A DNA stretch of 64,000 bases, taken from NCBI RefSeq assembly GCF_002423035.1, contig NZ_DIUM01000070.1, positions 48,056-112,055 on the forward strand, read 5' to 3'. Made by a program: the position numbers and the translations under genes. This DNA comes from Thiocapsa sp. UBA6158 (GTDB lineage: Bacteria > Pseudomonadota > Gammaproteobacteria > Chromatiales > Chromatiaceae). Below, in pieces: positions 7,323 through 42,779 of the stretch. A model generated the notes under the pieces. The model was not told the origin of the DNA. It made no database searches and worked only from the letters and a program-made list of their open reading frames with translations. Position 1 is the first letter of the stretch; each line of letters starts with the position of its first letter.

Positions 7323-7447
7323 GAATCACCACAGTCAGGGGGATGCCTGTATGGATCGTCGGCGGTCGGCCTTCAGCGGGGGATGGGGTTCGTTCGCTCT
7401 ACCCATCCTACGCCCTCGGAGCGTCGGCGCTCTTCTCTTCTTTAGGC

Positions 7448-28959: not shown

Positions 28960-29470
28960 TTATGAGGCGATGCCTGTGCTGTCGAGCAGACCCGACGTCC
29001 CGGCCGTCCCGAGATTCAAGGCATAACGGCTATGCTTGCGCTGCCCGGTGCGCACGAGCGCGCCCTTGGCGACCAGGTTCTGGAGGTCGCGGGTCGCGGT
29101 AGCGCGCGACGTACGGGCGATGGCGATATCGCTTTCGGCGCTCAAGCCCCCGACGAAGCCCTCGGGCCCCGCCCGGAACACCCGGGCGAGCCCCTTATCC
29201 CGGCGTGCGTTCATCTGATCCCGAAGCCGGTCGTAGAGCTTGGCTTTGCCGATCAGAGCGATGACCCGCGCGCGTGTAATCCAGCGCATCCAGGACGGCA
29301 TGGGAGAAATAGCCCAGCCAATCGTCGATGCGATTGACCTTGTTCGCCCGCTCCAGTGCGGCGTAATACGCCTTTTTGTACCGCTCGACCCGACCGTTGC
29401 CGTCCTCGAACGGGTGAATCGGGGCGAAATAGAGGTGGGCAATACCCGCACGTGTCAGGGTCGGCAGCGA
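28960..29470 (-). pseudogene. Fic family protein remnant
   Basis: The Fic motif HPFEDGNGR reads in one frame (about 29395-29420). It is followed directly by RYKKAYYAALE, which implies an internal deletion. A frameshift near 29270 leads into the winged-helix tail (ARTSRATATRDLQNLVAKGALVRTG). The N-terminal half is missing. Confidence 0.7.
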
Positions 29471-29654
29471 GCGCTTGCCGGTCGGGGCGCTTGCTGATGC
29501 CGAGCAGGCGCTCGCGCCCGCCGGTGGCGTGCTGTCGCGGCACCAAGCCGAGCCAGGCGGCCAGCGCGCGCCCGTTGCCGAACAGCGTCGGATCCTCTCC
29601 CACCGCCGCCGACAAGGCCGTCGCGCACTGCGCGACGATGCCCCGGATCGTCAT
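29471..29654 (-). mobile_element. IS110-family transposase C-terminal fragment
   Basis: The translation ...ALSAAVGEDPTLFGNGRALAAWLGLVPRQHATGGRERLLGISKR matches the conserved Transposase_20 block of IS110 transposases. There is no N-terminal catalytic part and no inverted repeats. It abuts the truncated Fic gene. Confidence 0.65.
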
Positions 29655-29772
29655 CAGGCGCTGTGCTGCTCCGTGACCTCGGTTGACGATGTTCGATCAC
29701 ATCGCTCATGGTGCCCGCTCAGGGCTCGTTGGGGGAGCGGGGCGGACCATCCCAATACCCTACCGGCCGAGC

Positions 29773-29961
29773 TTATGAATAACGCCGGACGATGCTGTCG
29801 CCCTCGCGGCGCATCAAAACCCCGTCGGCATCGATCTCGAGGTCACGGGGCAACCGCACGGCCTGATTTCTCCCGTTGCGGAAGAACCGGGCAGTCCCTG
29901 ACTGAACAGGGTCCGATTCAGATGCTGAAGGTTGGCGGTCACTTATGGATGCCTCTTGCAC
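29773..29961 (-). pseudogene. VapB/AbrB-type antitoxin remnant (no cognate toxin)
   Basis: ARFFRNGRNQAVRLPRDLEIDADGVLMRREGDSIV matches the SpoVT/AbrB antitoxin core (FxNGxSQAVRLP). It has an aberrant N-terminal extension and no PIN toxin ORF downstream. Confidence 0.55.
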
Positions 29962-30099
29962 CTATGCGAGACGCATAGGTTTACGTCCAGCGCCTCCGCG
30001 GCGCGGACGCGACCTTTCTGTTCTCAGCCACATCTCGCCTCTCCTCAAGGCCCGATCGCCGAGGATTCCGGGCGCGATTTGGGCGCCGTTCAGCCACAC

Positions 30100-30131
30100 A
30101 AACAAAAGCCGGCACAAGGCCGGCTTTTGAG
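30100..30131. terminator. bidirectional intrinsic terminator (ancestral terminator downstream of tRNA-Gly)
   Basis: The GCCGGC-ACAAG-GCCGGC hairpin (30108-30124) is flanked by an A-tract (ACAAACAAAA) and a T-tract (TTTTGA). Confidence 0.6.
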
Positions 30132-30210
30132 CTTTTGAGCTTTTGAGCTTTTGAGCTTTTGAGCTTTTGAGCTTTTGAGCTTTTGAGCTTTTGAGCTTTT
30201 GAGCTTTTGA
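30123..30210. repeat. perfect tandem octamer (GCTTTTGA) x 11
   Basis: Counted directly: 88 nt with no mismatch. The first unit is the 3' stem end plus T-tract of the terminator hairpin. The array ends 6 nt from the tRNA-Gly fragment. Confidence 0.95.
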
Positions 30211-30216
30211 TAAATT

Positions 30217-30263
30217 TGGAGCGGGAAACGAGATTCGAACTCGCGACCCCAACCTTGGCAAGG
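30217..30263 (-). repeat. att site: duplicated 3' 47 nt of tRNA-Gly (distal island junction)
   Basis: tggagcgggaaacgagattcgaactcgcgaccccaaccttggcaagg is identical at all 47 positions to 42000-42046. Identity ends abruptly at 30264. Confidence 0.9.
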
Positions 30264-30356
30264 AGATTGCTACCTTATTGACCACGGCGATACACGGAAA
30301 GATTAGCACGCGAGCGGCTCGGAGCAACACGGAATTACGCGGACCCTCCGCGAATG

Positions 30357-30488
30357 TGCGCAGAAAACTAAGCCCCTCTCTCCCTGGAAATGTCGGGAAG
30401 TCGGGAAGGTAGGGTTAACCCATTGCCTTGATTGAGAAAATACCTTCCCGACAGGGCTTTTCGGGTCGGGAGGATAAGTCGGGAAGGT
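30357..30488. repeat. iteron cluster A; about 130-bp copy of 36767-36896
   Basis: Near-identical to the segment downstream of the replicase gene, with a handful of mismatches. GTCGGGAAG cores at 30392, 30401 and 30478 (forward) and 30443-30452 (reverse), plus a degenerate copy at 30465. Confidence 0.85.
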
Positions 30489-30497
30489 TGGCGACCT

Positions 30498-30599
30498 GAT
30501 CGGAACCTGAAGGCAGCCTGTCCCAAAACGGAAGCGCTTCCGTTTTGGGACAGATCAGAACCTGAAGGAGGTGTTGACCGAAACTCACGTGAGTTTCGG
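30498..30599. repeat. palindrome / direct-repeat block at the island end
   Basis: A 16-nt direct repeat GATCRGAACCTGAAGG (30498-30513 and 30553-30568) flanks a perfect 36-bp palindrome, CTGTCCCAAAACGGAAGC|GCTTCCGTTTTGGGACAG (30518-30553). A perfect 22-bp palindrome, CCGAAACTCACGTGAGTTTCGG, follows at 30578-30599. Confidence 0.9.
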
Positions 30600-30624
30600 C
30601 GGAGGGCTAACTACAGGGGTGTGG

Positions 30625-30906
30625 TCAGCTCGGGTCGAGTTGGGCGGTTTGATCTTTTAGGCGATCTTCGAGCGCGTCTAAGTGTTGGCGCTCGTTGGAT
30701 GAAATCGCGTCCATCAACCGCGCCACGGCCGCCAATGACAAGCTCTCATCGCTGGCGATAACGCCTCGTTCCCGAAGAGCAGACTCGAACGCAGAGACCA
30801 GTTCCAAGGGACTATCTATGTCATCAAACCGGCCTGAATCCGACATCGGAATCAGTACGCTTAACATCCGCGGGACTGCATCGGGGTCGTTGACCTTGTT
30901 ACTCAT
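30625..30906 (-). CDS. hypothetical protein (island cargo)
   Basis: 93 aa from MSNKVNDPDAV. A GGAG lies 9 nt upstream of the ATG at 30906. Acidic. No family recognised. Confidence 0.5.
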   Translation of the reverse strand: MSNKVNDPDAVPRMLSVLIPMSDSGRFDDIDSPLELVSAFESALRERGVIASDESLSLAAVARLMDAISSNERQHLDALEDRLKDQTAQLDPS

Positions 30907-31031
30907 CGATCGGGCTCCGGGTGTGCCCGGGCATGCCGGGCGGGTTGGCGTGCGTCTGGATCCGAACCACGCAAGGGACTGGATCGGCAGACCCGCCACG
31001 CGGGCGGGTCTCGGGTTGAGCTCGAATCAGC

Positions 31032-31271
31032 TCAGACCAGGACGGCGACCCCGAAAGCGTCGGGGCCTTCAGCGTTGGCGATGTGTCCGCAGTCGAACCC
31101 CTCGCCTTCCGGTGCGACCCGGTAGCCAGATTCGGACACCAGCAGGACGGCGGATCGCCAGTCGAGCGCGGATCCGATCCGCTGCAAATCGCCCATATTG
31201 CCCTCCGCGTCGAACGGGACGGCGACCACGTCGCGCGGGGTGCCGTCGAGATAGGATTGATCGTTGCTCAT
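31032..31271 (-). CDS. hypothetical protein (island cargo)
   Basis: 79 aa, MSNDQSYLDGTPRDV.... Strong SD (AAGGAG) upstream of the ATG at 31271. Confidence 0.55.
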   Translation of the reverse strand: MSNDQSYLDGTPRDVVAVPFDAEGNMGDLQRIGSALDWRSAVLLVSESGYRVAPEGEGFDCGHIANAEGPDAFGVAVLV

Positions 31272-31319
31272 TCGTCCTTGCTCCTTGAGGTTGCGCCCGG
31301 CCGATGCCGGGCGGGTTGG

Positions 31320-31544
31320 TCAGTCTTGCAGGTCCAGCGGATCGAAGTCTTCTGCTCCGCCCTCGAATCGCGCGAAGGCGATGCACTGCTCGTCGGTCGC
31401 GTCATGCCCTCCCGGCCTGAAGAAGTTGCCCGCGAAGACGAACGCCCGGCCGTTGCGCTCGAACATTTTGAAGGATGTCGCAGGCTTGCCCCGCAGATTC
31501 ACGCGGGTCTTGTCCTCGATCCTGTAGTTCTCCACGTCGGTCAT
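31320..31544 (-). CDS. hypothetical protein (island cargo)
   Basis: 74 aa, MTDVENYRIEDKTRVNLRGKPATSFKMFERNGRAFVFAGNFF. SD GAGGG. ATGA overlap with the upstream ORF. Confidence 0.55.
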   Translation of the reverse strand: MTDVENYRIEDKTRVNLRGKPATSFKMFERNGRAFVFAGNFFRPGGHDATDEQCIAFARFEGGAEDFDPLDLQD

Positions 31545-31726
31545 GACCTTGCCCTCATTGCTCCGATCTGCGAAAGAAACTCGATGTCTTCCCGTGCCGG
31601 GTGATCCGGTGCGCAGAAAATAAGCGCGATGCTTGCTGAAAACAGCCGATCCGCTACCTCGTTCCACCGTTCCAGGTGCCATACCCCGCCGACGATCGCA
31701 TCTATCATGTGCTCGCTGTCGCTCAT
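31541..31726 (-). CDS. hypothetical protein (island cargo)
   Basis: 61 aa. SD GAGGAG 8 nt upstream. ATGA overlaps at both ends. Confidence 0.5.
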   Translation of the reverse strand: MSDSEHMIDAIVGGVWHLERWNEVADRLFSASIALIFCAPDHPAREDIEFLSQIGAMRARS

Positions 31727-32160
31727 GCCGCCTGCTCCTCAGCGGCGAGCTGGTCGACGGCCGTGATGATTGCCGCCTTCGCCTTCAGTCGGGCGGCGGC
31801 GATGCGCTCCTCCCGAGCCAGCGCGGCGGCTTGCTCGGCTTCGCGTTCGGCGATGCTGGCGTCCAGTGCGATGCTCAACAGACCGGCGGCGACTTCCGCG
31901 GCCGTCTCCCCCGTATCGGCGGCGATGCGGGCCAGGGTCGTTTCGCGTTCGGCGGTCGCAACCTCGTTGAAGGCGTCGGCGAACTCGAGTAAGCGGCTCG
32001 ACAGCAGGTGTGCCGCAGTCGCGATGCCTGACAGGCGATCGCGCTCGAAAGGTGTGTCGTCCAGCCCGCTTTCTTCGATGTCGAGCGTCCGGTTCAAGCC
32101 TTGCAGCGCCCACGCCAGTTGCCAAAGCTCACTCATGCCGCTGAATTGTGTTGCGCTCAT
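31723..32160 (-). CDS. hypothetical protein, Ala/Glu-rich helical (island cargo)
   Basis: 145 aa. SD GGAGG 7 nt upstream. ATGA overlap with the upstream ORF. Confidence 0.55.
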   Translation of the reverse strand: MSATQFSGMSELWQLAWALQGLNRTLDIEESGLDDTPFERDRLSGIATAAHLLSSRLLEFADAFNEVATAERETTLARIAADTGETAAEVAAGLLSIALDASIAEREAEQAAALAREERIAAARLKAKAAIITAVDQLAAEEQAA

Positions 32161-32477
32161 GAGCTCGCCTCCATCGGGGTCAATCCTGCATGGGCTCGGG
32201 TCGCCAAGCGGGTCAGTTCGGCGGCGCGACCGTCCGGGGCGGTCGTGACCATGTGCAGGATAGCGTCATGCCATCGGTGCGCGGCGACGACATCGGCGGC
32301 GCGCACGGGGTCACAGCGTAAGCCGTAGCGCACGACTCCGAAGAGTTGATGTGACAGGGCGATGCCCTTGTGAGCGAAGTCATCGCCGTCGATCGGCTTG
32401 CCGCAGCGCTGCATCTCGCCGACGAGATCGCGCGCGAGGAGGATGATGGATCGGCTCGGCTGGCGTTTACCTTCCAT
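32157..32477 (-). CDS. hypothetical protein (island cargo)
   Basis: 106 aa from MEGKRQPSRSIILLARDLVGEMQRCG. SD GGGAGG. The longer track ORF (to 32651) lacks coding character. Confidence 0.5.
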   Translation of the reverse strand: MEGKRQPSRSIILLARDLVGEMQRCGKPIDGDDFAHKGIALSHQLFGVVRYGLRCDPVRAADVVAAHRWHDAILHMVTTAPDGRAAELTRLATRAHAGLTPMEASS

Positions 32478-32715
32478 GTCGGCGACCTCCCAAGATCGAA
32501 CGGCGGCGGCGAACGCCGATAAACCGCAGCGCGGCTTCGATGCGAGCCAGTAGGGCCCGGGCCTCGGACAGCTCCCGGCCTTGCATGCCGGACAGGCACC
32601 AGGCGACGGACGCGCGAAGAGTGCGCAGTGTGCGATGGTCTCGACGCGCAAGGGCGTCTGATGTCATGCGGTGCCAAGTCGGCACGCGCAGTGATATATC
32701 ATGGCTGGTAGCCAT
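32467..32715 (-). CDS. hypothetical basic protein (island cargo)
   Basis: 82 aa. SD GGAGG 7 nt upstream of the ATG at 32715. 11-nt overlap with the next ORF. Confidence 0.45.
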   Translation of the reverse strand: MATSHDISLRVPTWHRMTSDALARRDHRTLRTLRASVAWCLSGMQGRELSEARALLARIEAALRFIGVRRRRSILGGRRHGR

Positions 32716-32795
32716 TGCCGAACCTCCGTTACAGGTTGGTGATGGTCAGGCATCCTCGGGCGTTGGCGCGCCCCTGGATGCCGATCTCCTCTACT

Positions 32796-32981
32796 TCACT
32801 TCGTCTTCGCGGTTCTCTTCCCCTCCCTCAGTTTCTTGCAGATGTCTCGGACCAGCGGTCTCGACTCCGCAGGCACCCACTCCGTAACCGACACGAACCC
32901 TTCGGCTCGCATCCGATCCCGCCATTCAGCCATGCGGACGCGGGTCGGTTTCCGTTTCTCGGTATCGGTAACATGTGACAT
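32796..32981 (-). CDS. DUF3018-like (MazE-family antitoxin-like) small protein
   Basis: KPTRVRMAEWRDRMRAEGFVSVTEWVPAESRPLV resembles the DUF3018 pattern (RVRxxRxRxRAxGLRPVQIWVPD). No MazF-like partner is adjacent. Confidence 0.5.
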   Translation of the reverse strand: MSHVTDTEKRKPTRVRMAEWRDRMRAEGFVSVTEWVPAESRPLVRDICKKLREGKRTAKTK

Positions 32982-33334
32982 ATGCCGAGTGTAACAGCGT
33001 GCGGACGGAAGTCTACATACCGTTCGTCGGTTTTTGCGCTCGGCGATGGATCCTCAAGGGTGCGCGCAAGGTGGCGTCGGCGCTGGTGATTTCTGCGGGT
33101 GCAGTCGGAAGGCATGACCCGATCCAGGTTGGGTTCGGTCTCTCCCTGAATCTCGCTTTCCGCTTCGGTCTCGACAGGCGATTCAGTGGATTCAGGCGTT
33201 GCTTCCTGGGTGTTTTGGGGTTCAGGTACTTCTTCAGTGTCGGTTTCTTTGATGTAAGAAACCTCATCAAAGTACCGATCGCCCCATGACTTAACGTCAA
33301 GACGGAAGCGCTGTGGGCTGCGGCTGTCGCACAT
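32828..33334 (-). CDS. hypothetical acidic protein (uncertain; conflicts with 32796-32981)
   Basis: From MCDSRSPQRFRLDVKSWGDRYFDEVSYIKETDTEEVPEPQNTQEATPESTESPVETEAESEIQGETEP. Locally low GC. The 3' third overlaps the DUF3018-like ORF in another frame and looks non-coding. Confidence 0.3.
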   Translation of the reverse strand: MCDSRSPQRFRLDVKSWGDRYFDEVSYIKETDTEEVPEPQNTQEATPESTESPVETEAESEIQGETEPNLDRVMPSDCTRRNHQRRRHLARTLEDPSPSAKTDERYVDFRPHAVTLGICHMLPIPRNGNRPASAWLNGGIGCEPKGSCRLRSGCLRSRDRWSETSARN

Positions 33335-33654
33335 GTCCAAGGCGTCGGAAGGCGTGACCTGATCCAGGAGGGGTTCGGGTCTCCTTGCGGATAAGGAGAG
33401 CGGACATCGGCGAACCCATGCGCAGATGTCGCGGCTCAAGGTTGAGCCGTGAGATTGCCCGGGCTCACTGCGCAGCGCTGCGCAGTGAGCGCAACCGGGG
33501 CACGGCACGGGTCAAGCGGGCGGTGCGGTCATCCTGAAGCGCGTAGAGCGGGCGCGCTTCGCGTTGACGGCCGCGGGCGGGGGCGGTGGGTCCAACATGC
33601 CGGCCAGGACCGTTGCGCGCTGCAGCGGCTTCCGGGTGGTCGCAGGCTTGCGGA

Positions 33655-33897
33655 TCAAGGCGGCGTATCGGGGCATCGGTCAATCCTCTCGGCTCGGCGG
33701 GGCGGTGGGACCAGGCGCAGATGTGACCGGCGGGCGGCGGCGCGGGCCTCCCGGTCGAGCCGGGCCTGCTCCGCTCGGAACCAGGACCGGAACAGCTCGA
33801 CGGCGGTGTCTTCGTCGGTCATGCGCACGTCGAACCCGCCCGAGTCGTTGGCGGCGAGCAGCAGCCCGTCAAGGTGCAGGGTCAGGGCGGGGTTCAT
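33655..33897 (-). CDS. hypothetical protein (island cargo)
   Basis: 80 aa from MNPALTLHLDGLLLAANDSGGFDVRMTDEDTAVELFRSWF. Weak SD. 29-nt overlap with the upstream ORF. Confidence 0.35.
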   Translation of the reverse strand: MNPALTLHLDGLLLAANDSGGFDVRMTDEDTAVELFRSWFRAEQARLDREARAAARRSHLRLVPPPRRAERIDRCPDTPP

Positions 33898-34189
33898 CGG
33901 CGTCTGTTCGTCGTGCGCGGTGCGCGGCGGCCTCGATGGCGGCCGCTCGGGTGATGGTCTCGAGTGTGCTGTAACGGAATCGACATCCAAGGCACTTGCG
34001 GCGGCGCCTGATGGCGTCGGCGCCGGCTTGGCGGGTCTCCAGTACTGCCGTGTGTTCAGACCCGCAGAGGGGGCAAGATGCGCTCAATGTACGGCCTCGG
34101 TGGTGGGTGCCGACTTTGCGACCGGGTCGGCGCCGGGAGGCCGCGGAGGAAGTCGCGACCTCGCAGCCGTCCAAAACTGCCCGCGCCAA
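33869..34189 (-). CDS. NrdR-type zinc-ribbon protein lacking the ATP-cone (Ogr/Delta-like size)
   Basis: CPLCGSEHTAVLETRQAGADAIRRRRKCLGCRFRYSTLE parallels the NrdR N-terminus (CPFCxxxDTKVIDSRxxxxGxxIRRRRxCxxCxxRFTTFE). A more likely start is TTG 34087, which has a GAGG SD and gives 72 aa beginning MSASCPLCG. Confidence 0.55.
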   Translation of the reverse strand: MARAVLDGCEVATSSAASRRRPGRKVGTHHRGRTLSASCPLCGSEHTAVLETRQAGADAIRRRRKCLGCRFRYSTLETITRAAAIEAAAHRARRTDADEPRPDPAP

Positions 34190-34192
34190 GAA

Positions 34193-34660
34193 TCAGGCAG
34201 CGATCCGGCCGAGATCGGGCGCCAAAACAACAGTAGGATCCGCATCGCCGCGTCGAACGATCGGCGTCGGCGAGCTGCGAATCGCGCGCTCTTCCTCGAT
34301 TTCCAGGCTACGCAGCTCCGCGTCGAGCTCGGCGAGGCGGCGGCGCCGGTCTGCGGCGCTGATGCCGGGCTCGGGATGTGCCTCGAAGGCAATCGCGGCG
34401 AGCCGTGCGGCGGTGCGCTCGAAGTCCAGCGCGGCGACGATCGAAAGCACGTCGATCCTGGATGCGGCGTGACTCGTCAAGTCGGTTTTGCCTTTGCGCA
34501 GCCGGGAGGGGTTAAGGATGTCCCGGCCGCGCTCGGCAAGGTGCTCGACCTCGGCGGCGATGCTTTCGGCCGCTTCGGCTTGGGCGGGCCACTCGCGTTC
34601 CACGGCTTTGCGCTCGGCTTGCAGGGCGGTGATGCGGTCGCGGATTTTCTCAATGGTCAT
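34193..34660 (-). CDS. hypothetical coiled-coil protein (island cargo)
   Basis: 155 aa from MTIEKIRDRITALQAERKAVEREW. ATGA overlap with the upstream ORF. Confidence 0.5.
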   Translation of the reverse strand: MTIEKIRDRITALQAERKAVEREWPAQAEAAESIAAEVEHLAERGRDILNPSRLRKGKTDLTSHAASRIDVLSIVAALDFERTAARLAAIAFEAHPEPGISAADRRRRLAELDAELRSLEIEEERAIRSSPTPIVRRGDADPTVVLAPDLGRIAA

Positions 34661-34917
34661 GCGATGGTTCCGATGATGTAGATGTTGCTGTTGTCGCTGC
34701 GGCGCTTCGCCGGCAGGCGTGCCCACGCGCGACCTCGCAGCCCGTCGCGGCGGAAGATGTCGCCTCCGCGCACCCATAGCCCACGCGCTGTCGGCGCCGG
34801 TTCGCTGTCGCTGAAAATCACCTCGAAGCCGTCCACGCCATCGCACTGACACGCGAAATCGAGCGAGGCGCCGGCGATCTCCGTATAAGCCGCAGTCAGG
34901 GGCACGGGGTCAGCCAT
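34657..34917 (-). CDS. hypothetical protein (island cargo)
   Basis: 86 aa, MADPVPLTAAYTEIAGASLDFACQCDGVDGFEVIF. 8-nt overlap upstream and ATGA downstream. Confidence 0.45.
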   Translation of the reverse strand: MADPVPLTAAYTEIAGASLDFACQCDGVDGFEVIFSDSEPAPTARGLWVRGGDIFRRDGLRGRAWARLPAKRRSDNSNIYIIGTIA

Positions 34918-35314
34918 TGGCGATGCGCCCGGTGTTGTCCTCCAGCCATTCCTCGCACGCGGTCAGCAGCTTGATTTGCGGCTTCCAGGCGGCTTGCGCG
35001 GACTCGATCGCCGTTTCCAGCTCGGCTAGGCGCTGCTCGACCATCTTCAGGTCAATTCGGGCGCCGGCTAGCTTCGGGTCTTCGGGCGTGCCGGGCACAC
35101 GAGGATTGCGCTGCAGGTCCACTCCCCATTGGGCGATGTACCGCGCAAGGTCTTGGCGCTCTTGGTGCAGCGCGAGGCGTTCGCCGATCAGCCCGGACAG
35201 GGCAGCGTGCGCGCCCTTGGCGGCGCGTCGCAGCTCCCGCAAGCGCATCTCGTAGGGCTCGAGCTTGGCGGCTCGGGCTTGCTTCTGAGCAAGCGTCAAT
35301 GGTGCCGAGATCAT
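34910..35314 (-). CDS. hypothetical helical protein (island cargo)
   Basis: 134 aa. SD GGAGG 9 nt upstream. ATGA overlap with the upstream ORF. Confidence 0.5.
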   Translation of the reverse strand: MISAPLTLAQKQARAAKLEPYEMRLRELRRAAKGAHAALSGLIGERLALHQERQDLARYIAQWGVDLQRNPRVPGTPEDPKLAGARIDLKMVEQRLAELETAIESAQAAWKPQIKLLTACEEWLEDNTGRIANG

Positions 35315-35703
35315 CGCTGAAAGCCTCCGCGATCCGGCCGCACAATCCGCGATCGCGGCGCGCTCATGTCCACGTCGCGCGCGGGTCCACCGGTGCGGCC
35401 TGACGACAGGGCTTTTTCGAGTGCTTCCATCGCGCGCATTTGCGCGTCAGTAGTCCCGGACGCAGAGGGGCCGGCCTGGTTGGCGCGGTGCGGCTCGTTG
35501 GCGGCGATCTGCGCGAGGGCTTCGTCCATCTCGGCTTGCTGCTCGGCGGACATCTTGCGCGGCGTTGGATAGTGGCCTGCGGTGATCTCGGGGCCGATCG
35601 CTGCGCCGACGGCGAGCGCGACCGGCCGATGTTTGATGATGCTGTTGTCGATCATGTTCGTGTCCGGTGTTTGGAGTGCGGACATTTTCAGCCGACGAAT
35701 CAA
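35311..35703 (-). CDS. hypothetical protein (island cargo)
   Basis: Up to 130 aa. The TTG at 35703 overlaps the upstream stop (TTGA). Alternative ATG starts at 35685 and 35655. Confidence 0.45.
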   Translation of the reverse strand: MIRRLKMSALQTPDTNMIDNSIIKHRPVALAVGAAIGPEITAGHYPTPRKMSAEQQAEMDEALAQIAANEPHRANQAGPSASGTTDAQMRAMEALEKALSSGRTGGPARDVDMSAPRSRIVRPDRGGFQR

Positions 35704-36293
35704 CCATCAAAACCGGGTGTTTGGTGTTCGGCGATAATGCGCTTCAGGTGCGTCGCGGATGTCGGAGCCGGTGCGCTGCTCAAGGCGAACCACAGCTCGC
35801 ACTGCAGAGGGCTAAGGCGTGCCGGTGGTTGTGCATGGTGCCGGGACCATCGCCAGGTGGACGCCTCGAACATCCCGATCTCGCTCGCCAGCTCACGGAT
35901 GCGCGCGGGGGTAGACGTGTCTTCGTTGAACGGGACCAGGGCGAAGGCGCGGCGGAGGTGCCGATCTCGACGGGAAAGGCGCTCGCGGGTCGCAAGGCTC
36001 GCGATGCCGCGGCCGCGGATGCCGAGACCCTCATCCAAGGTCGCCACAGCTCCGGTGGCCGCTAGGCGCAGCCCATCGGCGAGGAAAGCCGCGGCCTCCG
36101 GGTCGGTCCGGGCGGTCGCGGTGATCGCGCGGCGCAGCATGGCGAGCCCTTCATTCTGTTTCATATCGACAATCTCGATCCATAGCCAGTTGACATCGAA
36201 CATATCTGCTGCCGAGACCCTAAGCGACTGAAATCCTGTCGAAAACCGGGGCTCGAATTCCCCGCGGTTACGGCGGGGGTGCCGGGGTCCCAT
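35700..36293 (-). CDS. hypothetical protein (island cargo)
   Basis: Up to 197 aa. The start is uncertain (ATG 36293, 36203 or 36164). The coding-like part begins around MKQNEGLAMLRRAITATART. Confidence 0.45.
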   Translation of the reverse strand: MGPRHPRRNRGEFEPRFSTGFQSLRVSAADMFDVNWLWIEIVDMKQNEGLAMLRRAITATARTDPEAAAFLADGLRLAATGAVATLDEGLGIRGRGIASLATRERLSRRDRHLRRAFALVPFNEDTSTPARIRELASEIGMFEASTWRWSRHHAQPPARLSPLQCELWFALSSAPAPTSATHLKRIIAEHQTPGFDG

Positions 36294-36372
36294 CGCTGCT
36301 GAATCTTCCGAGAGAACATGCGGTTGCGAAACTCAGCCGAGCCCGTTGGATGCTGCATCGAAAGCATGACCC

Positions 36373-36747
36373 TCAAAACGCGGAAGTCAGCAGCCGGCCG
36401 ACGTGGTTCATGGTGTCGAGATCCACGTCGGCGGCGAACCGAACGGCCGCCCTACCCTGCTCATCTACGGCGACCTCCGTAACCGCGTCGGCGAGATCCT
36501 CCACCTCTAAGCAGAACCTCAGCTCGTCCACCGTCCACGGTTCCCGGCGCGTCACGGATCCAGGGCGAGCCTCACGCGGGTTTCGCGTCTGCTCGCTCTT
36601 GGCCCACTTCCGCGCGAACTTCATGCAGGTGGTTGCCTTCCCGATGACGAAGACCTTCCGAGCGGTCACACAGTAGTTCGTCGCGCTGGTGAAGGACTGA
36701 CAGTCGCAACAGCGGACCTGAGGGCGGTCATCATCCTTGCGGGCCAT
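36373..36747 (-). CDS. hypothetical Cys-containing protein, first gene after the iteron region
   Basis: 124 aa, MARKDDDRPQVRCCDCQSFTSATNYCV...TTCMKF. Strong SD GGGAGGG upstream of the ATG at 36747. Confidence 0.55.
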   Translation of the reverse strand: MARKDDDRPQVRCCDCQSFTSATNYCVTARKVFVIGKATTCMKFARKWAKSEQTRNPREARPGSVTRREPWTVDELRFCLEVEDLADAVTEVAVDEQGRAAVRFAADVDLDTMNHVGRLLTSAF

Positions 36748-36766
36748 GCCAAGCCCTCCCGGTGTG

Positions 36767-37011
36767 TGTGCAGAAAACTAAGCCCCTCTCTCCCTGGAAA
36801 TGTCGGGAAGTCGGGAAGGTATGGTTAACCCATTGCCTTGATTGATAAAACGCCTTCCCGACAGGGCTTTTCGGGTCGGGAAGGCAAGTCGGGAAGCGTG
36901 CCGTTACCCTTCCCGACTTTTGCAGCCTTCCCGACTTCCGAAAAACCATGTCGGGAAGGTCTAACCCCACGCCAGCCTTGAGCAAAACAGCAACCTTCCC
37001 GACTTCCCGAC
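36767..37011. promoter_or_regulatory. iteron cluster B (candidate replication origin) immediately 3' of the replicase gene
   Basis: Ten perfect GTCGGGAAG cores. Forward copies are at 36802, 36810, 36875, 36888 and 36950. Reverse copies are at 36854, 36909, 36927, 36995 and 37003. An 18-nt inverted pair, GTCGGGAAGTCGGGAAGG (36802-36819) and its complement (36994-37011), brackets an AT-richer core (TTAACCCATTGCCTTGATTGATAAAA). Confidence 0.7.
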
Positions 37012-37030
37012 TTTTCACAGATAACACCTA

Positions 37031-39883
37031 TTAACTTTCATGGAGAGCGGGGGAGGCTTCGTGTTCAGGCGATCCGCTCGGAAGCAACTGCCCTAGAGGC
37101 ATCCGCCACACACGATCGGGGGAGATGTTGGCCCGGTTATGCTTGTGCCCGATGTCGCGCCCCGAGCCCCGCTGCAGGAATCCGCGTTCGGCGAGCGCTT
37201 TCGCCAGCCGGTGTTGCGAACGCGGCGCCCCTGCTCCCTGGTCTCTGGCGAGCTTGGCAATCGCCGTATACGCGGCGGCTGGACTGAGCCAAAGCTGCGG
37301 GCCTAGGTCGTTGGCTTGGTCGACGAAGTAGCCGATCGGCTCCCCGAGTGCCTCGAATCGCTGCTCTACGCGCGGCTCCCCGTCTGGTCCCTCATTGCGG
37401 TGCATGTGAATGGTTGTTTTCCAGCCCAAGAGGTGTGATCGGGATACGGGCGGTTTCGACGCCGGCACTTGTGCTGCGTCGATGACGTGGACGCGACCGA
37501 GAGAGAATGCCGCCCTGAGTAGTTCCATCGCGCGAACGGCATCCTCCGAGGTTTCCTGCAGGTCGGCTTGAACCCTCGCTTGGTCCAGCAAGGCGCTTTT
37601 GCACCGCGATTCGAGATCGGCGGCGCGCTCCCGAGACAGCGCCCCGATGTCGAGCGCGAAGCGAAAGAAGACTTCGATCGAGAGACGCATTCCCGCCAAG
37701 TTGGCCGGGATGCGCTCATGGTCCCGAAGCTCCGAGCCGACTTCGGCGCGAAGCTCTTCGTAGCGGATCGGCAGTTCGGCTTCGAGCTGCTCCGCACGGG
37801 AGGCGATCCACCGCAGATATCCGGACATCGCGGCGGCGTAGATTCCCGCTCTGGCGTGACGCTGGCACTCGGTAAGGATGTCCAGCTCCATCGTCCCCGG
37901 GGTCAAGCTGAGAATCCACATTCGCGCCCGCAACGAACGCCCGGCCGGTAGGTCTTCACCGGATGCCGAGACCATGCCTCTCGGGTAGTAGGTCCGACGC
38001 AAGCGGGTGTCGGCGGTCATGCGCCCCCGGCCGGCTTGGTTGGCGGCGCCACGAAAGACGCGATCGGCCTTGATGCTCATGGCCTGTTGATCGCTCGCGG
38101 TCCCTTGAGGGTTGTAGTCGTCGATCTCGAACAAGGCATCCTTGATGCCGAACGCCTTTTTCATCATGGCGTTTTCGGTACTGGACCAGCTTTCGGGGAA
38201 GGACCGCGCATTCCAGCCCTGCCCATAGTGGGCCATCGCCAGGGCGGCGATCTCGGACTTGAAGGTCCCCGACCGGCCGTCTACGAAAACCCCGCAATCC
38301 TGCCGATACCATCCGCCGAGCGGCGGGCCGTAGATCCGCGCCAACTGGACGGCGCCCACGCCGTCGTTAACGAGCCGCATCTGGAGCAGCGATTTCCGCA
38401 CCGCGTCAACCAATGCCGGCGGTTCCGGTGGGTGCGGGAGGTGGTAGTTCATCAGGTTGTCTTCGAGCTCGACATCAATGTCGTCTCGGGCTCCATTCGC
38501 CGTGATCGCGCCTCCCGCGTGCAGGTAAACAAGCTCGCCGCCGATCTTCCTCCATCCCGTGTGGGTGTAGATTTGGCGTGTCACCATGTCTCGGCTGTAG
38601 GTCTGGATCGCCGCCCGCAGATGGTCACGGACGGATGACCCGGCCGTGACGACGTATTGATGACCGAGCTTGTTCGTGACCCACGCCATCCCGCTGAACT
38701 GTGCGGTCAGGATCTCCACGTCCACCGTTGAGACGCCACCCGCGGAGGGCCGATAAACCTTGAGCTGCGTTCGATGCTCGGTCTCCACGCCGTCGTCATA
38801 CAGGCGCTGCTCGGCGACCACGGCCGAAAAGTTGGCGAGCGGTATCCGCTTCTCGGTCGTCTCCCTGGATTCGCCGCGGCCTGTCGTGATGGTCCGCAAC
38901 TGGTAGAAAACCCCTTTAGACCAGACGTAGGGGCCGATCTGTTCATCCTCCGGGACCTCTTCGGGCTCGGGCTCCGGCTCCGCTGCGGGTGGCGGTCGTT
39001 CCTCCGCGTGACGGGCGCGCGGGTTCGCCCATCCGCACTTTTGCGCCTCAGCGAAGACAGCGCGGTAATCCAGCTCCGAGCCCTGGAAGCTGCGCCACTT
39101 GGCGGCGGCTTGTGCCGCGTCGAACTTCTCGGATGTCGCGCTCCAAGCGAGCCACAAGCCCCGGCCGATGTTGCCGTAAGCCGAGAGCGCGAGCCCCATC
39201 CGAACCCACGTTTCATAGGGGTCGGCGTCGATGGTAAAGAGGGCTTCGCGTAGCTCGGAGATTTGGCGCGGCTCAAGGGCATGCCGAGGTGTTGCTGTGG
39301 GCTCCGCTTCGCGACCCGATTCATGGCCGCGATGCAAAGGCGTCAGGGTGTCGCGAACAAAAGGGGCAAGGTCCTCAAGGTCGCCCCCGAGGGCCTCGCC
39401 GGTAACGGTGAAGTAGCGACCCCTGCAATACGCCTCGATCCCGGTCTTGTTTGAGCCCAAGCCCTCGAACGCGGAACCGTGGCCGATCGCGTGCACTCCC
39501 TTACCGGACGGCGACCGCTCCACGTAGCCCGGTAGGATGTCGATCAAAGCTGCAAGCTCGGACCGCTCCGCCGTGTTGTCTAGGTCGATCCCTTGCCAGA
39601 CGAGTCCGTCATCATCCGGACCGAGCGCAAATCCGAGCCCAGCGTATCCGCCACGCGCGACGGCGTGGACGGCTTCGTCCATCGTCACCAGGCAAGCCAG
39701 ATCCTCCGGACTGTCGAGCTTTCCGGATCGCTTCTTACCGTTGGCGTAGTACGGGACCTTTCGCGGCTTCGGTTTGGCCGGTATCAGCTTCCACACCAGC
39801 CAGCGCCGCGCGGCCTGCATGGTGGTGGGAATCTCAAGCTGGAGTGTTTCCAGGGGTGGCGGTGTCGGGGCGTCGTCACGCAT
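37031..39883 (-). CDS. replicase: bifunctional Prim-Pol + PriCT-2 + C-terminal P-loop (helicase-like) protein
   Basis: Prim-Pol motifs are present: RRWLVWK...KVPY, GIDLDN, SPSGKGVH, IEAYCRGRYFTVTG. A PriCT-2 block follows (WVRMGLALSAYGNIGRGLWLAWSATSEKFDAAQAAAKWRSF), then a Walker-A-like GRSGTFKS at about residue 570. Confidence 0.85.
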   Translation of the reverse strand: MRDDAPTPPPLETLQLEIPTTMQAARRWLVWKLIPAKPKPRKVPYYANGKKRSGKLDSPEDLACLVTMDEAVHAVARGGYAGLGFALGPDDDGLVWQGIDLDNTAERSELAALIDILPGYVERSPSGKGVHAIGHGSAFEGLGSNKTGIEAYCRGRYFTVTGEALGGDLEDLAPFVRDTLTPLHRGHESGREAEPTATPRHALEPRQISELREALFTIDADPYETWVRMGLALSAYGNIGRGLWLAWSATSEKFDAAQAAAKWRSFQGSELDYRAVFAEAQKCGWANPRARHAEERPPPAAEPEPEPEEVPEDEQIGPYVWSKGVFYQLRTITTGRGESRETTEKRIPLANFSAVVAEQRLYDDGVETEHRTQLKVYRPSAGGVSTVDVEILTAQFSGMAWVTNKLGHQYVVTAGSSVRDHLRAAIQTYSRDMVTRQIYTHTGWRKIGGELVYLHAGGAITANGARDDIDVELEDNLMNYHLPHPPEPPALVDAVRKSLLQMRLVNDGVGAVQLARIYGPPLGGWYRQDCGVFVDGRSGTFKSEIAALAMAHYGQGWNARSFPESWSSTENAMMKKAFGIKDALFEIDDYNPQGTASDQQAMSIKADRVFRGAANQAGRGRMTADTRLRRTYYPRGMVSASGEDLPAGRSLRARMWILSLTPGTMELDILTECQRHARAGIYAAAMSGYLRWIASRAEQLEAELPIRYEELRAEVGSELRDHERIPANLAGMRLSIEVFFRFALDIGALSRERAADLESRCKSALLDQARVQADLQETSEDAVRAMELLRAAFSLGRVHVIDAAQVPASKPPVSRSHLLGWKTTIHMHRNEGPDGEPRVEQRFEALGEPIGYFVDQANDLGPQLWLSPAAAYTAIAKLARDQGAGAPRSQHRLAKALAERGFLQRGSGRDIGHKHNRANISPDRVWRMPLGQLLPSGSPEHEASPALHES

Positions 39884-41024: not shown

Positions 41025-41906
41025 CTAGCCGAACACGCGATCCACCACGTCGAGCTTGTCGGATGCGTTGGCGTGCATGTAGCGCGCGCTCGCGCTCAAG
41101 GTGCGGTGTCCCATGACGGCCATGATGGCGGCCTGATTGACCCCGGAGGTTGCCATCGCATGCCCGCAGCCGTGGCGCAGTTGATGGAAGTTGCGACCCG
41201 GCAGACCCGCCTCGGTGCAGACGCGAATCCAGAGACGGCGGAACCCGAACGGGCGCCCCTCGCTACCCTCGAAGACCAGGGCATCCGGTTGCTTCCCCGG
41301 CAGCAGGCGCAGTGCATCGGCCGCACGCGCGGAGAGTGCGGAGACCTGGGGCCGGCCGTTCTTGGTCTTCAGTACGGTGATGGTGCGGCGCTCAAGGTCC
41401 ACGTCGCCCCATCGAAGGGTCATGAGATTGCCGACGCGCAACCCGGTGTGAAAGGCAACCAGGACCAGGGCAGACAGCTTGCCCCATCGGGTGTCGAGTA
41501 GACGGGTGACGGCAAGGATACGCTCGACCTCCTCCGCGCGAAGGTATCGGTTCGGGTCGGCGGGCTCGGGGGATTTCTCCACGCCGCGCGTCGGGGGCAC
41601 ATGGGCACGGGGCAGCAGACGCAGGCGTCGAGCGTATTTGAAGACGGAGGCGAGTTGCGAGACGTAGCGGTTATAGGTGGCGCCGGACATGGGCGCGCCG
41701 GCCGGCTCGGTGGCTTGACCGCGGCGGGGCACCAGGCGCCCGCGTTCGGCGAGCCGAACAAGCGCAAGGTCCACGTCGTCGGCGGTGATCTCGGCGAGAT
41801 CCCGAGAGCCGAGCGACTCATCCCAAAACGCGAGACGGGCCAGGGTTCCCCGGTCGAATTCGCGCGACGCGACGAACGCGTCAATGGTCACGGAAAGTGT
41901 AGGCAT
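41025..41906 (-). CDS. int: tyrosine-type site-specific integrase
   Basis: 293 aa. The catalytic pattern is present: AFHTGLRVGN (R), HQLRHGCG (HxxR), MGHRTLSASARYMH (H...Y). It lies 93 bp from the tRNA-Gly 3' end. Confidence 0.9.
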   Translation of the reverse strand: MPTLSVTIDAFVASREFDRGTLARLAFWDESLGSRDLAEITADDVDLALVRLAERGRLVPRRGQATEPAGAPMSGATYNRYVSQLASVFKYARRLRLLPRAHVPPTRGVEKSPEPADPNRYLRAEEVERILAVTRLLDTRWGKLSALVLVAFHTGLRVGNLMTLRWGDVDLERRTITVLKTKNGRPQVSALSARAADALRLLPGKQPDALVFEGSEGRPFGFRRLWIRVCTEAGLPGRNFHQLRHGCGHAMATSGVNQAAIMAVMGHRTLSASARYMHANASDKLDVVDRVFG

Positions 41907-41999
41907 AAAACTTGCTCCGAGTGCAAAACGATCAGAACCGTGAACTGATCGCCGTGGCGGCGCACTTTCGGAAGCAATTTCAAGCGCTTAGGGTTGAAT

Positions 42000-42046
42000 T
42001 GGAGCGGGAAACGAGATTCGAACTCGCGACCCCAACCTTGGCAAGG
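42000..42046 (-). repeat. att site: 47-nt core within the intact tRNA-Gly (proximal island junction)
   Basis: Identical to 30217-30263. Confidence 0.9.
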
Positions 42047-42074
42047 TTGTGCTCTACCACTGAGCTATTCCCGC
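42000..42074 (-). tRNA. tRNA-Gly (anticodon GCC)
   Basis: The reverse complement is GCGGGAATAGCTCAGTGGTAGAGCACAACCTTGCCAAGGTTGGGGTCGCGAGTTCGAATCTCGTTTCCCGCTCCA. It has a 7-bp acceptor stem, D loop, anticodon loop CTTGCCAAG, T arm GTTCGAATC and an encoded CCA. Confidence 0.95.
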
Positions 42075-42203
42075 TTTGGAGCCGTGCATTTTAAGGCCTT
42101 TTGCGATGCTGTCAACCCCTGGATTGCATCCGATCTCGCGGCTCGCAGGGGCGGTGTGGACAAGGCTCCGCTGACGGCTTCGCGCCATCGCTCGGAGCCG
42201 GGC

Positions 42204-42779
42204 TCAACCACGCCCCTCGATATCGACCTGACCGGACAGGCTCGGCCAAGCGGCGTGCAGATAGAGCACCATCGACCAGAGTGTCAGGACGGCAGCGACG
42301 TACAGAAGAACGACACCCAACCCGTAGACCCAGGGTCCGAAGACTGTATCGTGCAGGATCATGAGCACGATCGAGATCATCTGGGCCGTGGTCTTGATCT
42401 TGCCGGTCATGGAGACCGCGACCTTGGCGCGCGCACCGATCTCGGCCATCCACTCGCGCAGCGCAGAGACCGTGATCTCGCGTCCGATGATGACCATCGC
42501 CGGGAGCGCCAAGAACGTGCGAGGGTCGTACTGAACGAGCAGGACGAGCGCGACCGCAACCATCAGCTTGTCGGCGACCGGATCGAGGAAGGCGCCGAGC
42601 GGCGAGGTCTGCTCCCAGAGACGCGCAAGATAGCCGTCAAGCCAATCCGTCAGGGCGGCCGCACCGAAGACCGCGGCGGCGACGTAGGGCGCCCAGGGTG
42701 CGCCCATGTAAAAGACGACGACAAACACCGGAATCAAGACAATCCGGAGCATCGTCAGAATGTTGGGGATATTCCACAT
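42204..42779 (-). CDS. pgsA: CDP-diacylglycerol--glycerol-3-phosphate 3-phosphatidyltransferase
   Basis: MWNIPNILTMLRIVLIPVF...DWLDGYLAR...DPVADK is the CDP-alcohol phosphatidyltransferase motif. The uvrC-pgsA-tRNA-Gly order matches enterobacteria. Confidence 0.95.
   Translation of the reverse strand: MWNIPNILTMLRIVLIPVFVVVFYMGAPWAPYVAAAVFGAAALTDWLDGYLARLWEQTSPLGAFLDPVADKLMVAVALVLLVQYDPRTFLALPAMVIIGREITVSALREWMAEIGARAKVAVSMTGKIKTTAQMISIVLMILHDTVFGPWVYGLGVVLLYVAAVLTLWSMVLYLHAAWPSLSGQVDIEGRG

Follow-up and report, generated by a model that had tools for sequence, protein, structure and literature searches.

A syntenic cassette of undescribed protein families downstream of the replicase in a satellite-like island of Thiocapsa sp. 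UBA6158

A block of small genes in the purple sulfur bacterium Thiocapsa sp. UBA6158 was analyzed within a 64-kb stretch of DNA with a G+C content of about 65%, which is referred to as the window. The block occupies positions 30625-36747 and is best explained as the non-replicative half of an integrative, self-replicating island. This mobile island is located at a tRNA-Gly gene and comprises 11,783 bp, as given by the spacing of its attachment (att) repeats. The proximal part of the block contains a cassette of six genes, o02-o03-o04-o05-o06-o07 (36293-33869), which starts just downstream of a candidate iteron origin and which recurs, either entire or as its o02/o06 core, in at least 10 other islands, where it follows replicases of seven different architectures. 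From its gene content the element is classed as a satellite-like integrase-replicase island that carries a conserved accessory cassette of undescribed protein families. By analogy with the sid-delta-psu genes of satellite P4, the cassette may function as a helper-phage exploitation ('late') module of an undescribed satellite family, a reading which we propose tentatively, as possible rather than probable. Dependence on a helper phage and the molecular functions of all products are what we infer from the arrangement and relationships of the genes.

The borders of the island are demonstrated by an exact direct repeat of 48 nucleotides (nt). attL (41999-42046) is situated within the 3' end of a tRNA-Gly(GCC) gene (42000-42074, minus strand), which was detected by ARAGORN and was the only feature that passed the threshold in a scan of Rfam, and the second copy, attR, forms the right border at 30216-30263. 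The order of genes on the minus strand is a tyrosine integrase (41025-41906, minus strand; PF00589 at 1e-24), two or three small ORFs (open reading frames) without family match, a primase/helicase of 950 amino acids (aa) with a Pfam match to PriCT_2 at 9e-12 and a weak one to DUF927 (37031-39883, minus strand), and finally the block of small genes. The island is flanked by ordinary host genes, namely uvrC and pgsA at one border and a gene for an aldo-keto reductase at the other. Searches of the island ORFs against Pfam, PHROGs, PADLOC and NCBIfam revealed no genes for capsid, terminase, portal, tail, relaxase, secretion or conjugation functions. At NCBI the proteins of the island are entered under Thiocapsa sp. 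UBA6158 as hypothetical proteins. Several metagenomes contain copies of the island with 99.9-100% identity, on nine or more contigs in total, and several of these break off at the att repeats or close to them, as is expected if the island is present in part of the population and absent or excised elsewhere.

Within 30625-36747 we identified 17 co-directional genes on the minus strand, designated o01-o09 and o11-o18, which code for proteins of 54-167 aa and take up 83% of the interval. The gene model was established from the list of ORFs, the G+C content at third codon positions (GC3) in each frame, inspection of starts and Shine-Dalgarno (SD) sequences, and gene calls made independently on metagenome contigs of identical sequence. 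The called frames show the highest GC3, and SD motifs (GGAGG, GAGG or AGGAG) stand 5' of about 10 of the 17 starts. Overlaps of 4 nt of the ATGA type connect o03/o04 (35311-35314), o05/o06 (34657), o13/o14 (32157), o14/o15 (31723) and o15/o16 (31541); o04 and o05 share 8 nt (34910-34917), and longer overlaps occur between o07 and o08 (29 nt), o08 and o09 (22 nt) and o12 and o13 (11 nt). The zinc-ribbon gene o07 was overlooked by automatic gene callers, yet it is conserved. No match to the sigma-70 consensus promoter turned up within the block, whose terminator-like sites are no more frequent than those of shuffled sequence.

Since the near-identical metagenome copies carry no selection signal, diverged islands were sought for the selection tests. 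These were reached via full-length homologues of the primase, which are PriCT-2 proteins of 47-77% identity and head related islands, and subsequently via homologues of o06 and o02. Protein-level homologues in other islands were obtained for 14 of the 17 genes. Thirteen genes are under purifying selection, with ratios of nonsynonymous to synonymous substitution rates (dN/dS) of 0.12-0.57 (Nei-Gojobori, against the diverged island copies) and preserved reading frames. Compared with the related island L041, substitutions are concentrated at third codon positions, as can be seen for o06 (36/30/67 at positions 1/2/3), o11 (8/4/24), o12 (8/3/16) and o16 (15/9/28). The same counts led to the rejection of a long form of o13 with a start at 32651 and of a long acidic ORF at 32828-33508; in both, the substitutions fall on the wrong codon positions for a gene.

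An earlier note, derived from the letters of the window, had described about 16 small co-directional minus-strand ORFs with SD sequences at about half of them, had named the five ATGA overlaps listed above, all of which are present, and had regarded the ORFs as likely to be real genes, several of them translationally coupled. The 17 genes, their starts and the selection on 13 of them bear out this description, and the lack of protein conservation, with dN/dS of about 1, that the note had considered as an opposite outcome was not encountered in the related islands. Its view of the locus as a satellite-like island agrees with an integrase and a primase at a tRNA gene and the lack of capsid and conjugation genes. 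The conservation of the gene neighborhood, which it had advised to check, was found in the cassette, where gene order is retained across islands (six of six genes in L039, five of six in L041).

The reading that many of these ORFs are spurious frames of GC-rich DNA, or remnants of a decayed prophage early region, can draw on the fact that high G+C content yields long shadow ORFs; 122 ORFs of at least 30 aa overlap the stretch from 29000 to 38500. It can further draw on o09, whose dN/dS of 0.89 and lack of codon periodicity give no selection signal and make its status as a gene doubtful, and on o01, o15 and o18, for which no homologue was found in the related islands and whose status rests on GC3, SD motifs and coupling. 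The preserved frames of the 13 selected genes against diverged copies, the GC3 peak in the called frames, the start-stop overlaps with their SD motifs and the conserved gene order stand against this reading, which is thereby essentially excluded.

In every sampled island the cassette is located one to four genes downstream of the replicase. The most complete counterpart is in Thiocapsa sp. CP073760 (L039), which has all six genes in the same order with amino acid identities of 40-55%, and five of the six are present in L041. The o02 and o06 core was detected in L032, L035, L043, L045, L048 and L050, again one to four genes after the replicase. Profiles matched o06 in 11 of 11 sampled islands and o02 in nine; besides the window, o04 was found in five and o05 in four, and a ribbon of the o07 type directly follows o06 in four islands. 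The replicases next to the cassette take seven forms: PriCT_2 only, Toprim_3 with DUF927, RepB_primase/PriCT_2/DUF5906, AAA_25, Prim-Pol/PriCT_1/VapE, D5_N/DUF5906, and a protein of 1011 aa without family match. L039 combines an unrelated integrase of 404 aa, AlpA and a split Toprim_3 and DUF927 replicase with a tRNA-Arg site and ends right after the zinc ribbon gene, and L041 has the RepB_primase/PriCT_2/DUF5906 replicase at a tRNA-Leu site. Because it retains its synteny behind the replicase in many islands whose backbones are unrelated, the cassette appears to travel as one unit, of which o02 and o06 are the constant core, and behaves as core machinery of the element and not as swappable cargo.

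Judged by its distribution, o02 (35700-36293, minus strand; 167 aa from an ATG at 36203, with the ORF open to 36293) would be the hallmark gene of the cassette. Its dN/dS is 0.48, and its family comprises 2,038 clusters at 50% identity with E<=1e-3, or 759 with E<=1e-10. No Pfam family matched more than one of 150 family members, and the single matches were weak; a sequence match in the PDB was likewise not found. The AlphaFold 2 (AF2) model of o02, with a mean predicted local distance difference test (pLDDT) score of 82, is all-helical with eight helices and has no neighbor in the PDB or in BFVD, a database of viral structures. The second core gene, o06 (34193-34660, minus strand; 155 aa), is 52-63% identical to its homologues in L039 and L041, with a dN/dS of 0.36, and its AF2 model (pLDDT 81) consists of two long helical hairpins that gave generic coiled-coil matches only. 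A coiled-coil hairpin is also predicted for o04 (34910-35314, minus strand; 134 aa; dN/dS 0.53), which has homologues in L039, L041, L032, L033 and L045 and for which the PDB offers only designed antiparallel coiled coils as matches. Paralogy of o04 and o06 was rejected at an hhalign probability of 5%. The remaining proteins are o03 (35311-35655, minus strand; 114 aa; dN/dS 0.45), with a homologue of 45% identity in L039 only, and o05 (34657-34917, minus strand; 86 aa; dN/dS 0.57), which by its composition is not helix-rich and recurs in L039, L041, L035 and L043.

The last gene of the cassette, o07 (33869-34189, minus strand; dN/dS 0.38), encodes a C4 zinc ribbon of 72 aa if translation starts from the TTG at 34087 or of 106 aa from the TTG at 34189, with the pattern CxxC...RRRRxCxxCxxRFxTxE. 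Homologues directly follow the o06 homologue in L041 (77% identity), L039 (47%) and L048. The protein matches PF22811 (Zn_ribbon_NrdR) at 3e-13, whereas Ogr_Delta was matched at an E value of 0.0085 and 16.4 bits, below the cutoff of 26.3.

Upstream of o02, a leader of about 120 nt (36204-36320, minus strand) is conserved in a three-island alignment. Its nucleotides (window 36204-36320; L041 9845-9975; L039 8325-8455) are more strongly conserved than the coding sequence of the cassette; its reading frame is not conserved and differs in L039. As an RNA it has a weak consensus fold of -8 kcal/mol (RNAalifold) without covariation support, and it may represent a promoter, an operator or an RNA element. 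Directly upstream of the o02 homologue, a gene for an activator of the Mor family (PF08765) was observed in L045 (6609-7082) and L046 (882-1166).

The iterons of the island are demonstrated by their frequency and position. With 15 copies in the window, the motif GTCGGGAAG far exceeds the 0.95 copies expected, and none of 100 shuffles reached this number; 14 of the 15 copies fall into two clusters. The proximal one (36754-37016) contains 10 copies in both orientations at 36802-37011, between the primase stop codon and o01. The distal one is a 150-nt repeat at 30344-30493, between o18 and attR, with four copies at 30392-30486. This repeat is 90-94% identical to 36754-36903, so that the two repeats bracket the block. 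The layout of an iteron-controlled replicon is thus present, as short repeats far above chance are clustered next to the primase gene. By analogy we read the proximal cluster as the candidate origin of replication (ori) and the distal copy, which resembles the cis replication region (crr) of P4, as a second cis-site. Iteron clusters directly after the replicase gene were also found in L033, L039 and L045; L033, whose primase is 58% identical, has the similar motif CTTCCGACA after the primase, and L039 and L045 have motifs of their own. Several clusters of iterons or tandem repeats are present in relatives (L039 2011-2120, 4858-4967, 6843-7106 and 11055-11300; L033 11212-11714). Among them is one at the integrase-distal end of the island, which echoes the distal repeat copy in the window.

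Between the candidate ori and the cassette lies o01 (36373-36747, minus strand; 124 aa), with six Cys residues, a GGGAGGG SD and a GC3 of 0.80; it appears to be an island-specific first gene. The cassette is followed by o08 (33655-33897, minus strand; 80 aa; GC3 above 0.9; dN/dS 0.49), which is 58% identical to its L041 homologue, and by the doubtful gene o09 (33512-33676, minus strand; 54 aa; GC3 0.86), which is 62% identical in L041.

The genes o11-o18 (32981-30625) follow a spacer of 530 nt. The last 150 nt or so of this spacer, 32982-33128 (minus strand), are about 88% identical to L041 at the nucleotide level without ORF support and form a non-coding leader of the distal unit, a candidate promoter or operator. 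At 33104-33378 the window carries an insertion or duplication that is absent from L041, with 240 nt between direct repeats of 35 nt that bear the near-iteron GTCGGAAGG; ORFs within it failed the coding tests. The stretch 32982-33378 bears the repeated near-iteron GGATCGGGTCAYGCCTTCCGAC, and the window has the extra 240 nt between two of the 35-nt copies.

The first gene of the distal unit, o11 (32796-32981, minus strand; 61 aa), is likely a ribbon-helix-helix (RHH) regulator. It matches the MazE-like family PF11455 (formerly DUF3018) at 7.7e-4 and 19.8 bits, below the cutoff of 22, has homologues in L041 (79% identity), L045 (53%) and the island of Thiocapsa bogorovii CP089309, designated L047 (84%, partial), and shows the lowest dN/dS of the block, 0.12. 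Its neighbors are the very basic o12 (32467-32715, minus strand; 82 aa; isoelectric point, pI, 12; dN/dS 0.30), which is 90% identical in L041 with a weak match in L045, and o13 (32157-32477, minus strand; 106 aa; dN/dS 0.18), whose identity to L041 is 88% by tblastn with the longer ORF and 94% over 106 aligned codons. No toxin family was matched by o12 or o13 in Pfam, PHROGs, PADLOC or NCBIfam. In the spacer between o11 and o12 (32708-32783, minus strand), Rfam gave a match to an R1162-like plasmid antisense RNA with 37.5 bits and an E value of 0.0017, below the gathering threshold of 55.

The tail ends with five genes whose products are all acidic, with pI values of 4.1-4.9. The Ala/Glu-rich, helical o14 (31723-32160, minus strand; 145 aa; pI 4.4; dN/dS 0.32) is 67% identical to a protein encoded at the end of L045. 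It is followed by o15 (31541-31726, minus strand; 61 aa; pI 4.8), which overlaps both of its neighbors by 4 nt, is preceded by a GAGGAG SD and was called on identical contigs, by o16 (31320-31544, minus strand; 74 aa; pI 4.9; 60% identical in L041; dN/dS 0.16) and by o17 (31032-31271, minus strand; 79 aa; pI 4.1; dN/dS 0.14), which is 91% identical to the product of the last gene of the T. bogorovii island with its different, DEAD-helicase backbone. The last gene, o18 (30625-30906, minus strand; 93 aa; pI 4.3), has a GGAG SD and was also called on identical contigs. Tail genes are shared one by one: o11-o13 and o16 with L041 (60-90%), o11 (53%) and o14 (67%) with L045, and o17 and the partial o11 with T. 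bogorovii. This pattern points to o11-o18 as a mosaic of freely exchanged small genes, which would represent true accessory cargo.

The absence of the block from known families was demonstrated in the four libraries mentioned above, in which 15 of the 17 genes have no match. Profile searches of PDB sequences yielded only designed coiled coils or noise, and for the models of o02 and o06 the best hits in the PDB and BFVD had E values of about 1-2 and template modeling (TM) scores below 0.4, without any significant neighbor. The earlier note had recognized no family besides a zinc ribbon and a DUF3018-like peptide and had remarked that several proteins are acidic or coiled-coil, in agreement with the seven acidic proteins (o05, o06 and o14-o18) and the helical-hairpin or coiled-coil predictions for o04 and o06; matches to ordinary phage replication or regulation proteins, which it had regarded as the contrary outcome, were not obtained apart from the zinc ribbon. 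Its concept of one cargo block holds for the exchangeable distal genes o11-o18, whereas o02-o07 form a conserved syntenic cassette. For the anti-phage function that it had suggested no positive evidence emerged, as PADLOC gave no match, enzymatic domains are missing and no protein exceeds 167 aa.

Among known systems, P4 offers the closest parallel. Its genome has a size of 11.6 kb, and its ori and crr are both bound by the alpha primase. The island in the window, with about 11.8 kb, likewise combines a tRNA gene as the integration site of its tyrosine integrase with a single large primase/helicase and with an operon of co-directional genes for small helical proteins that also codes for a C4 zinc-ribbon protein, and its iterons in two separated clusters, the second about 6.4 kb away, would be the counterparts of ori and crr by analogy. 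In contrast to P4, it shows no detectable homology to Sid, Psu, Eps or P4 alpha, nor to Delta above threshold (PHROGs; tblastn against GenBank phages, where inclusion of the P4 record is unconfirmed). Its primase, with PriCT_2 and a weak DUF927, is a functional analogue of P4 alpha and not a homologue, and neither a cos site nor a P2-like helper is known for it. With regard to P4 Delta and Ogr, o07 reaches 16.4 bits and its L039 homologue 22.6 bits, both below the cutoff of 26.3 and both higher on the NrdR ribbon. The NrdR zinc-ribbon domain PF22811 is shared with NrdR, whereas the ATP-cone is missing from the 72-106 aa of o07, TIGR00244 is matched with 34.6 bits against a cutoff of 124.65, and the gene is located in a mobile island next to o06 and not at an nrd locus; judged by this architecture, o07 is not NrdR.

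The Gram-negative phage-inducible chromosomal islands (PICI) and phage-inducible chromosomal minimalist islands (PICMI) resemble the element in the sequence of integrase, small regulators, primase/replicase with origin and small-gene operon, in the absence of structural genes and in site-specific integration, and relatives of the window island carry AlpA as PICI do. The island itself differs in that no homologue of AlpA, TerS, Ppi, Rpp or Cpm was found with Pfam and PHROGs, and the cassette families o02, o04 and o06 are absent from both libraries. Similar to the defence hotspots of satellites, o11-o18 are exchanged like hotspot cargo and one relative has HsdR and Schlafen genes at the equivalent position, whereas the window contains no known defence family and the proximal half is conserved and not variable.

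Two units may be distinguished under the helper-exploitation reading. Unit A (o01-o09) would hold the cassette acting as the 'late' module, in which the zinc ribbon of o07 would bind DNA and act as a transcription factor in the manner of P4 Delta and P2 Ogr. Unit B (o11-o18) would start with the MazE-like regulator behind its own conserved leader and would carry accessory cargo, with anti-defence or interference factors among the candidates. This model is suggested because the cassette combines helical-hairpin proteins with a C4 zinc ribbon, because a Mor activator stands beside o02 in L045 and L046, and because island sizes are narrow. The att-to-att size is 11,783 bp for the island in the window, and the sizes of L041, L033 and L039 are, in descending order, 11,737, 10,949 and 10,884 bp. 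These four islands differ in integrase, replicase and tRNA target (Gly, Leu, Thr and Arg), and this range of 10.9-11.8 kb is compatible with a packaging size limit. Several observations weigh against the model. Neither a helper phage nor a cos or pac site nor an encapsidated copy was identified, and the block resembles neither Sid, Psu, CpmA/B, Ppi, Rpp nor TerS in sequence or fold, nor Delta apart from the sub-threshold Ogr_Delta match of o07. Among GenBank phages and PLSDB plasmids a tblastn search with 18 concatenated candidate ORFs gave no match and thus no relative of the cassette, and a pattern scan of IMG/VR and the JGI metagenomes did not find relatives of o02 or o06. The o07 ribbon scores higher as NrdR-type than as Ogr/Delta-type, a coiled-coil shape by itself is functionally uninformative, and the position beside the ori is equally consistent with a role in replication or maintenance. 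Such a role is the substance of an alternative that we consider unlikely, yet serious, in which the cassette is the island's own replication, maintenance or regulatory module, with no helper phage involved, and might act in replisome loading or organization at the iterons, in copy-number control, or in the control of excision or immunity. That the cassette always lies directly downstream of the replicase and its iteron origin fits this alternative, as do the DNA-binding zinc ribbon of the type that NrdR uses as a repressor, the conserved non-coding leaders before o02 and o11 and the lack of a phage link in GenBank phages, PLSDB and IMG/VR. At least seven unrelated replicase architectures argue against a partnership with one replicase or origin, coiled-coil hairpin proteins are atypical of origin-accessory factors, and the narrow sizes of the islands suggest a packaging limit.

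A third possibility, that the block or a part of it is undescribed anti-phage defence, anti-defence or interference cargo, appears improbable to us and is plausible for the tail only. On one contig (P0007) a relative of the primase is followed by genes for HsdR (type I restriction) and a Schlafen/AlbA_2-HATPase protein on the opposite strand, and this position directly after the primase implies that this side of the island can take defence cargo in at least one relative. The exchange of single Unit B genes between islands, the resemblance of o11 to an antitoxin and the small size and acidity of o14-o18 point in the same direction; many anti-restriction or DNA-mimic proteins are small and acidic. 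On the other side, PADLOC found no match to a defence system among 20 proteins, domains of nucleases, ATPases, nucleotidyltransferases (NTase), TIR proteins or proteases are missing from the block, whose longest protein has 167 aa, no toxin partner was recognized beside o11, and o02-o07 are conserved and syntenic across islands instead of variable. Returning to helper exploitation, a far-reaching version of this reading, which as a whole we regard as rather unlikely, would take the o02...o06-o07 cassette to define a widespread undescribed family of phage satellites, or of islands otherwise dependent on a helper, among Chromatiaceae and further bacteria known from metagenomes. The module for hijacking would then be unrelated by descent to those of P4, PICI, capsid-forming PICI (cfPICI), PICI-like elements (PLE) or PICMI and could move among seven or more replicase and integrase backbones, and o14-o18 would be new anti-defence or interference factors.

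Phage satellites are known mainly from enterobacteria, staphylococci and vibrios, and little is known of them in phototrophic sulfur bacteria and most environmental lineages. The locus provides a set of markers, namely the o02 family, the o06 family and an NrdR-type zinc ribbon right after replicase and origin, that would allow metagenomes to be searched for a whole class of small integrase-replicase islands and the islands found to be sorted. A role in helper exploitation would make the cassette an independent solution to the piracy of capsids or packaging, and a role in replication or maintenance would make it an accessory of iteron replicons that does not depend on the backbone. New anti-defence proteins may reasonably be sought in the mosaic acidic tail.

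After the last gene, two strong hairpins are encoded at 30518-30600 (minus strand), one of them with a perfect stem of 17 bp and no U-tract; the RNA fold has a z-score of -6.6. The adjoining sequence 30553-30634 is 78% identical to the end of L041. The hairpins may terminate transcription or may serve in recognition or packaging, and they represent the only candidate site for cos.

Some further observations concern the relatives and the surroundings of the island. Distant relatives of the primase in GTDB genomes and IMG/VR share its N-terminal primase domain only and have none of the small genes. An 18-nt match to a double iteron in one IMG/VR contig, which shows no other similarity, was attributed to chance. 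In L032 and L033 the first ORF after the primase looked by eye like Nu1 or the small terminase subunit (TerS), an identity that was dropped as Pfam gave only a weak match to HTH_17. L047 encodes a DUF1441 protein (7263-7766) with a faint match to Phage_Nu1, which is similar to terminase small subunits. Of two ORF fragments on the minus strand just outside attR, 29253-29654 resembles by eye the C-terminal end of a transposase of the IS110 family and 29773-29961 an antitoxin of the AbrB/VapB type. In the metagenome contig L028 the tRNA and the island are identical to the window, whereas the sequence beyond tRNA-Gly (1-225, compared with 42079-42300 of the window) is wholly different, which reflects either a rearrangement at the level of strains or a second sequence context on the upstream side of the tRNA. 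Directly outside attR, the 8-nt sequence GCTTTTGA is repeated in tandem in about 11 copies (30123-30210), and its copy number varies among otherwise identical metagenome copies of the locus.

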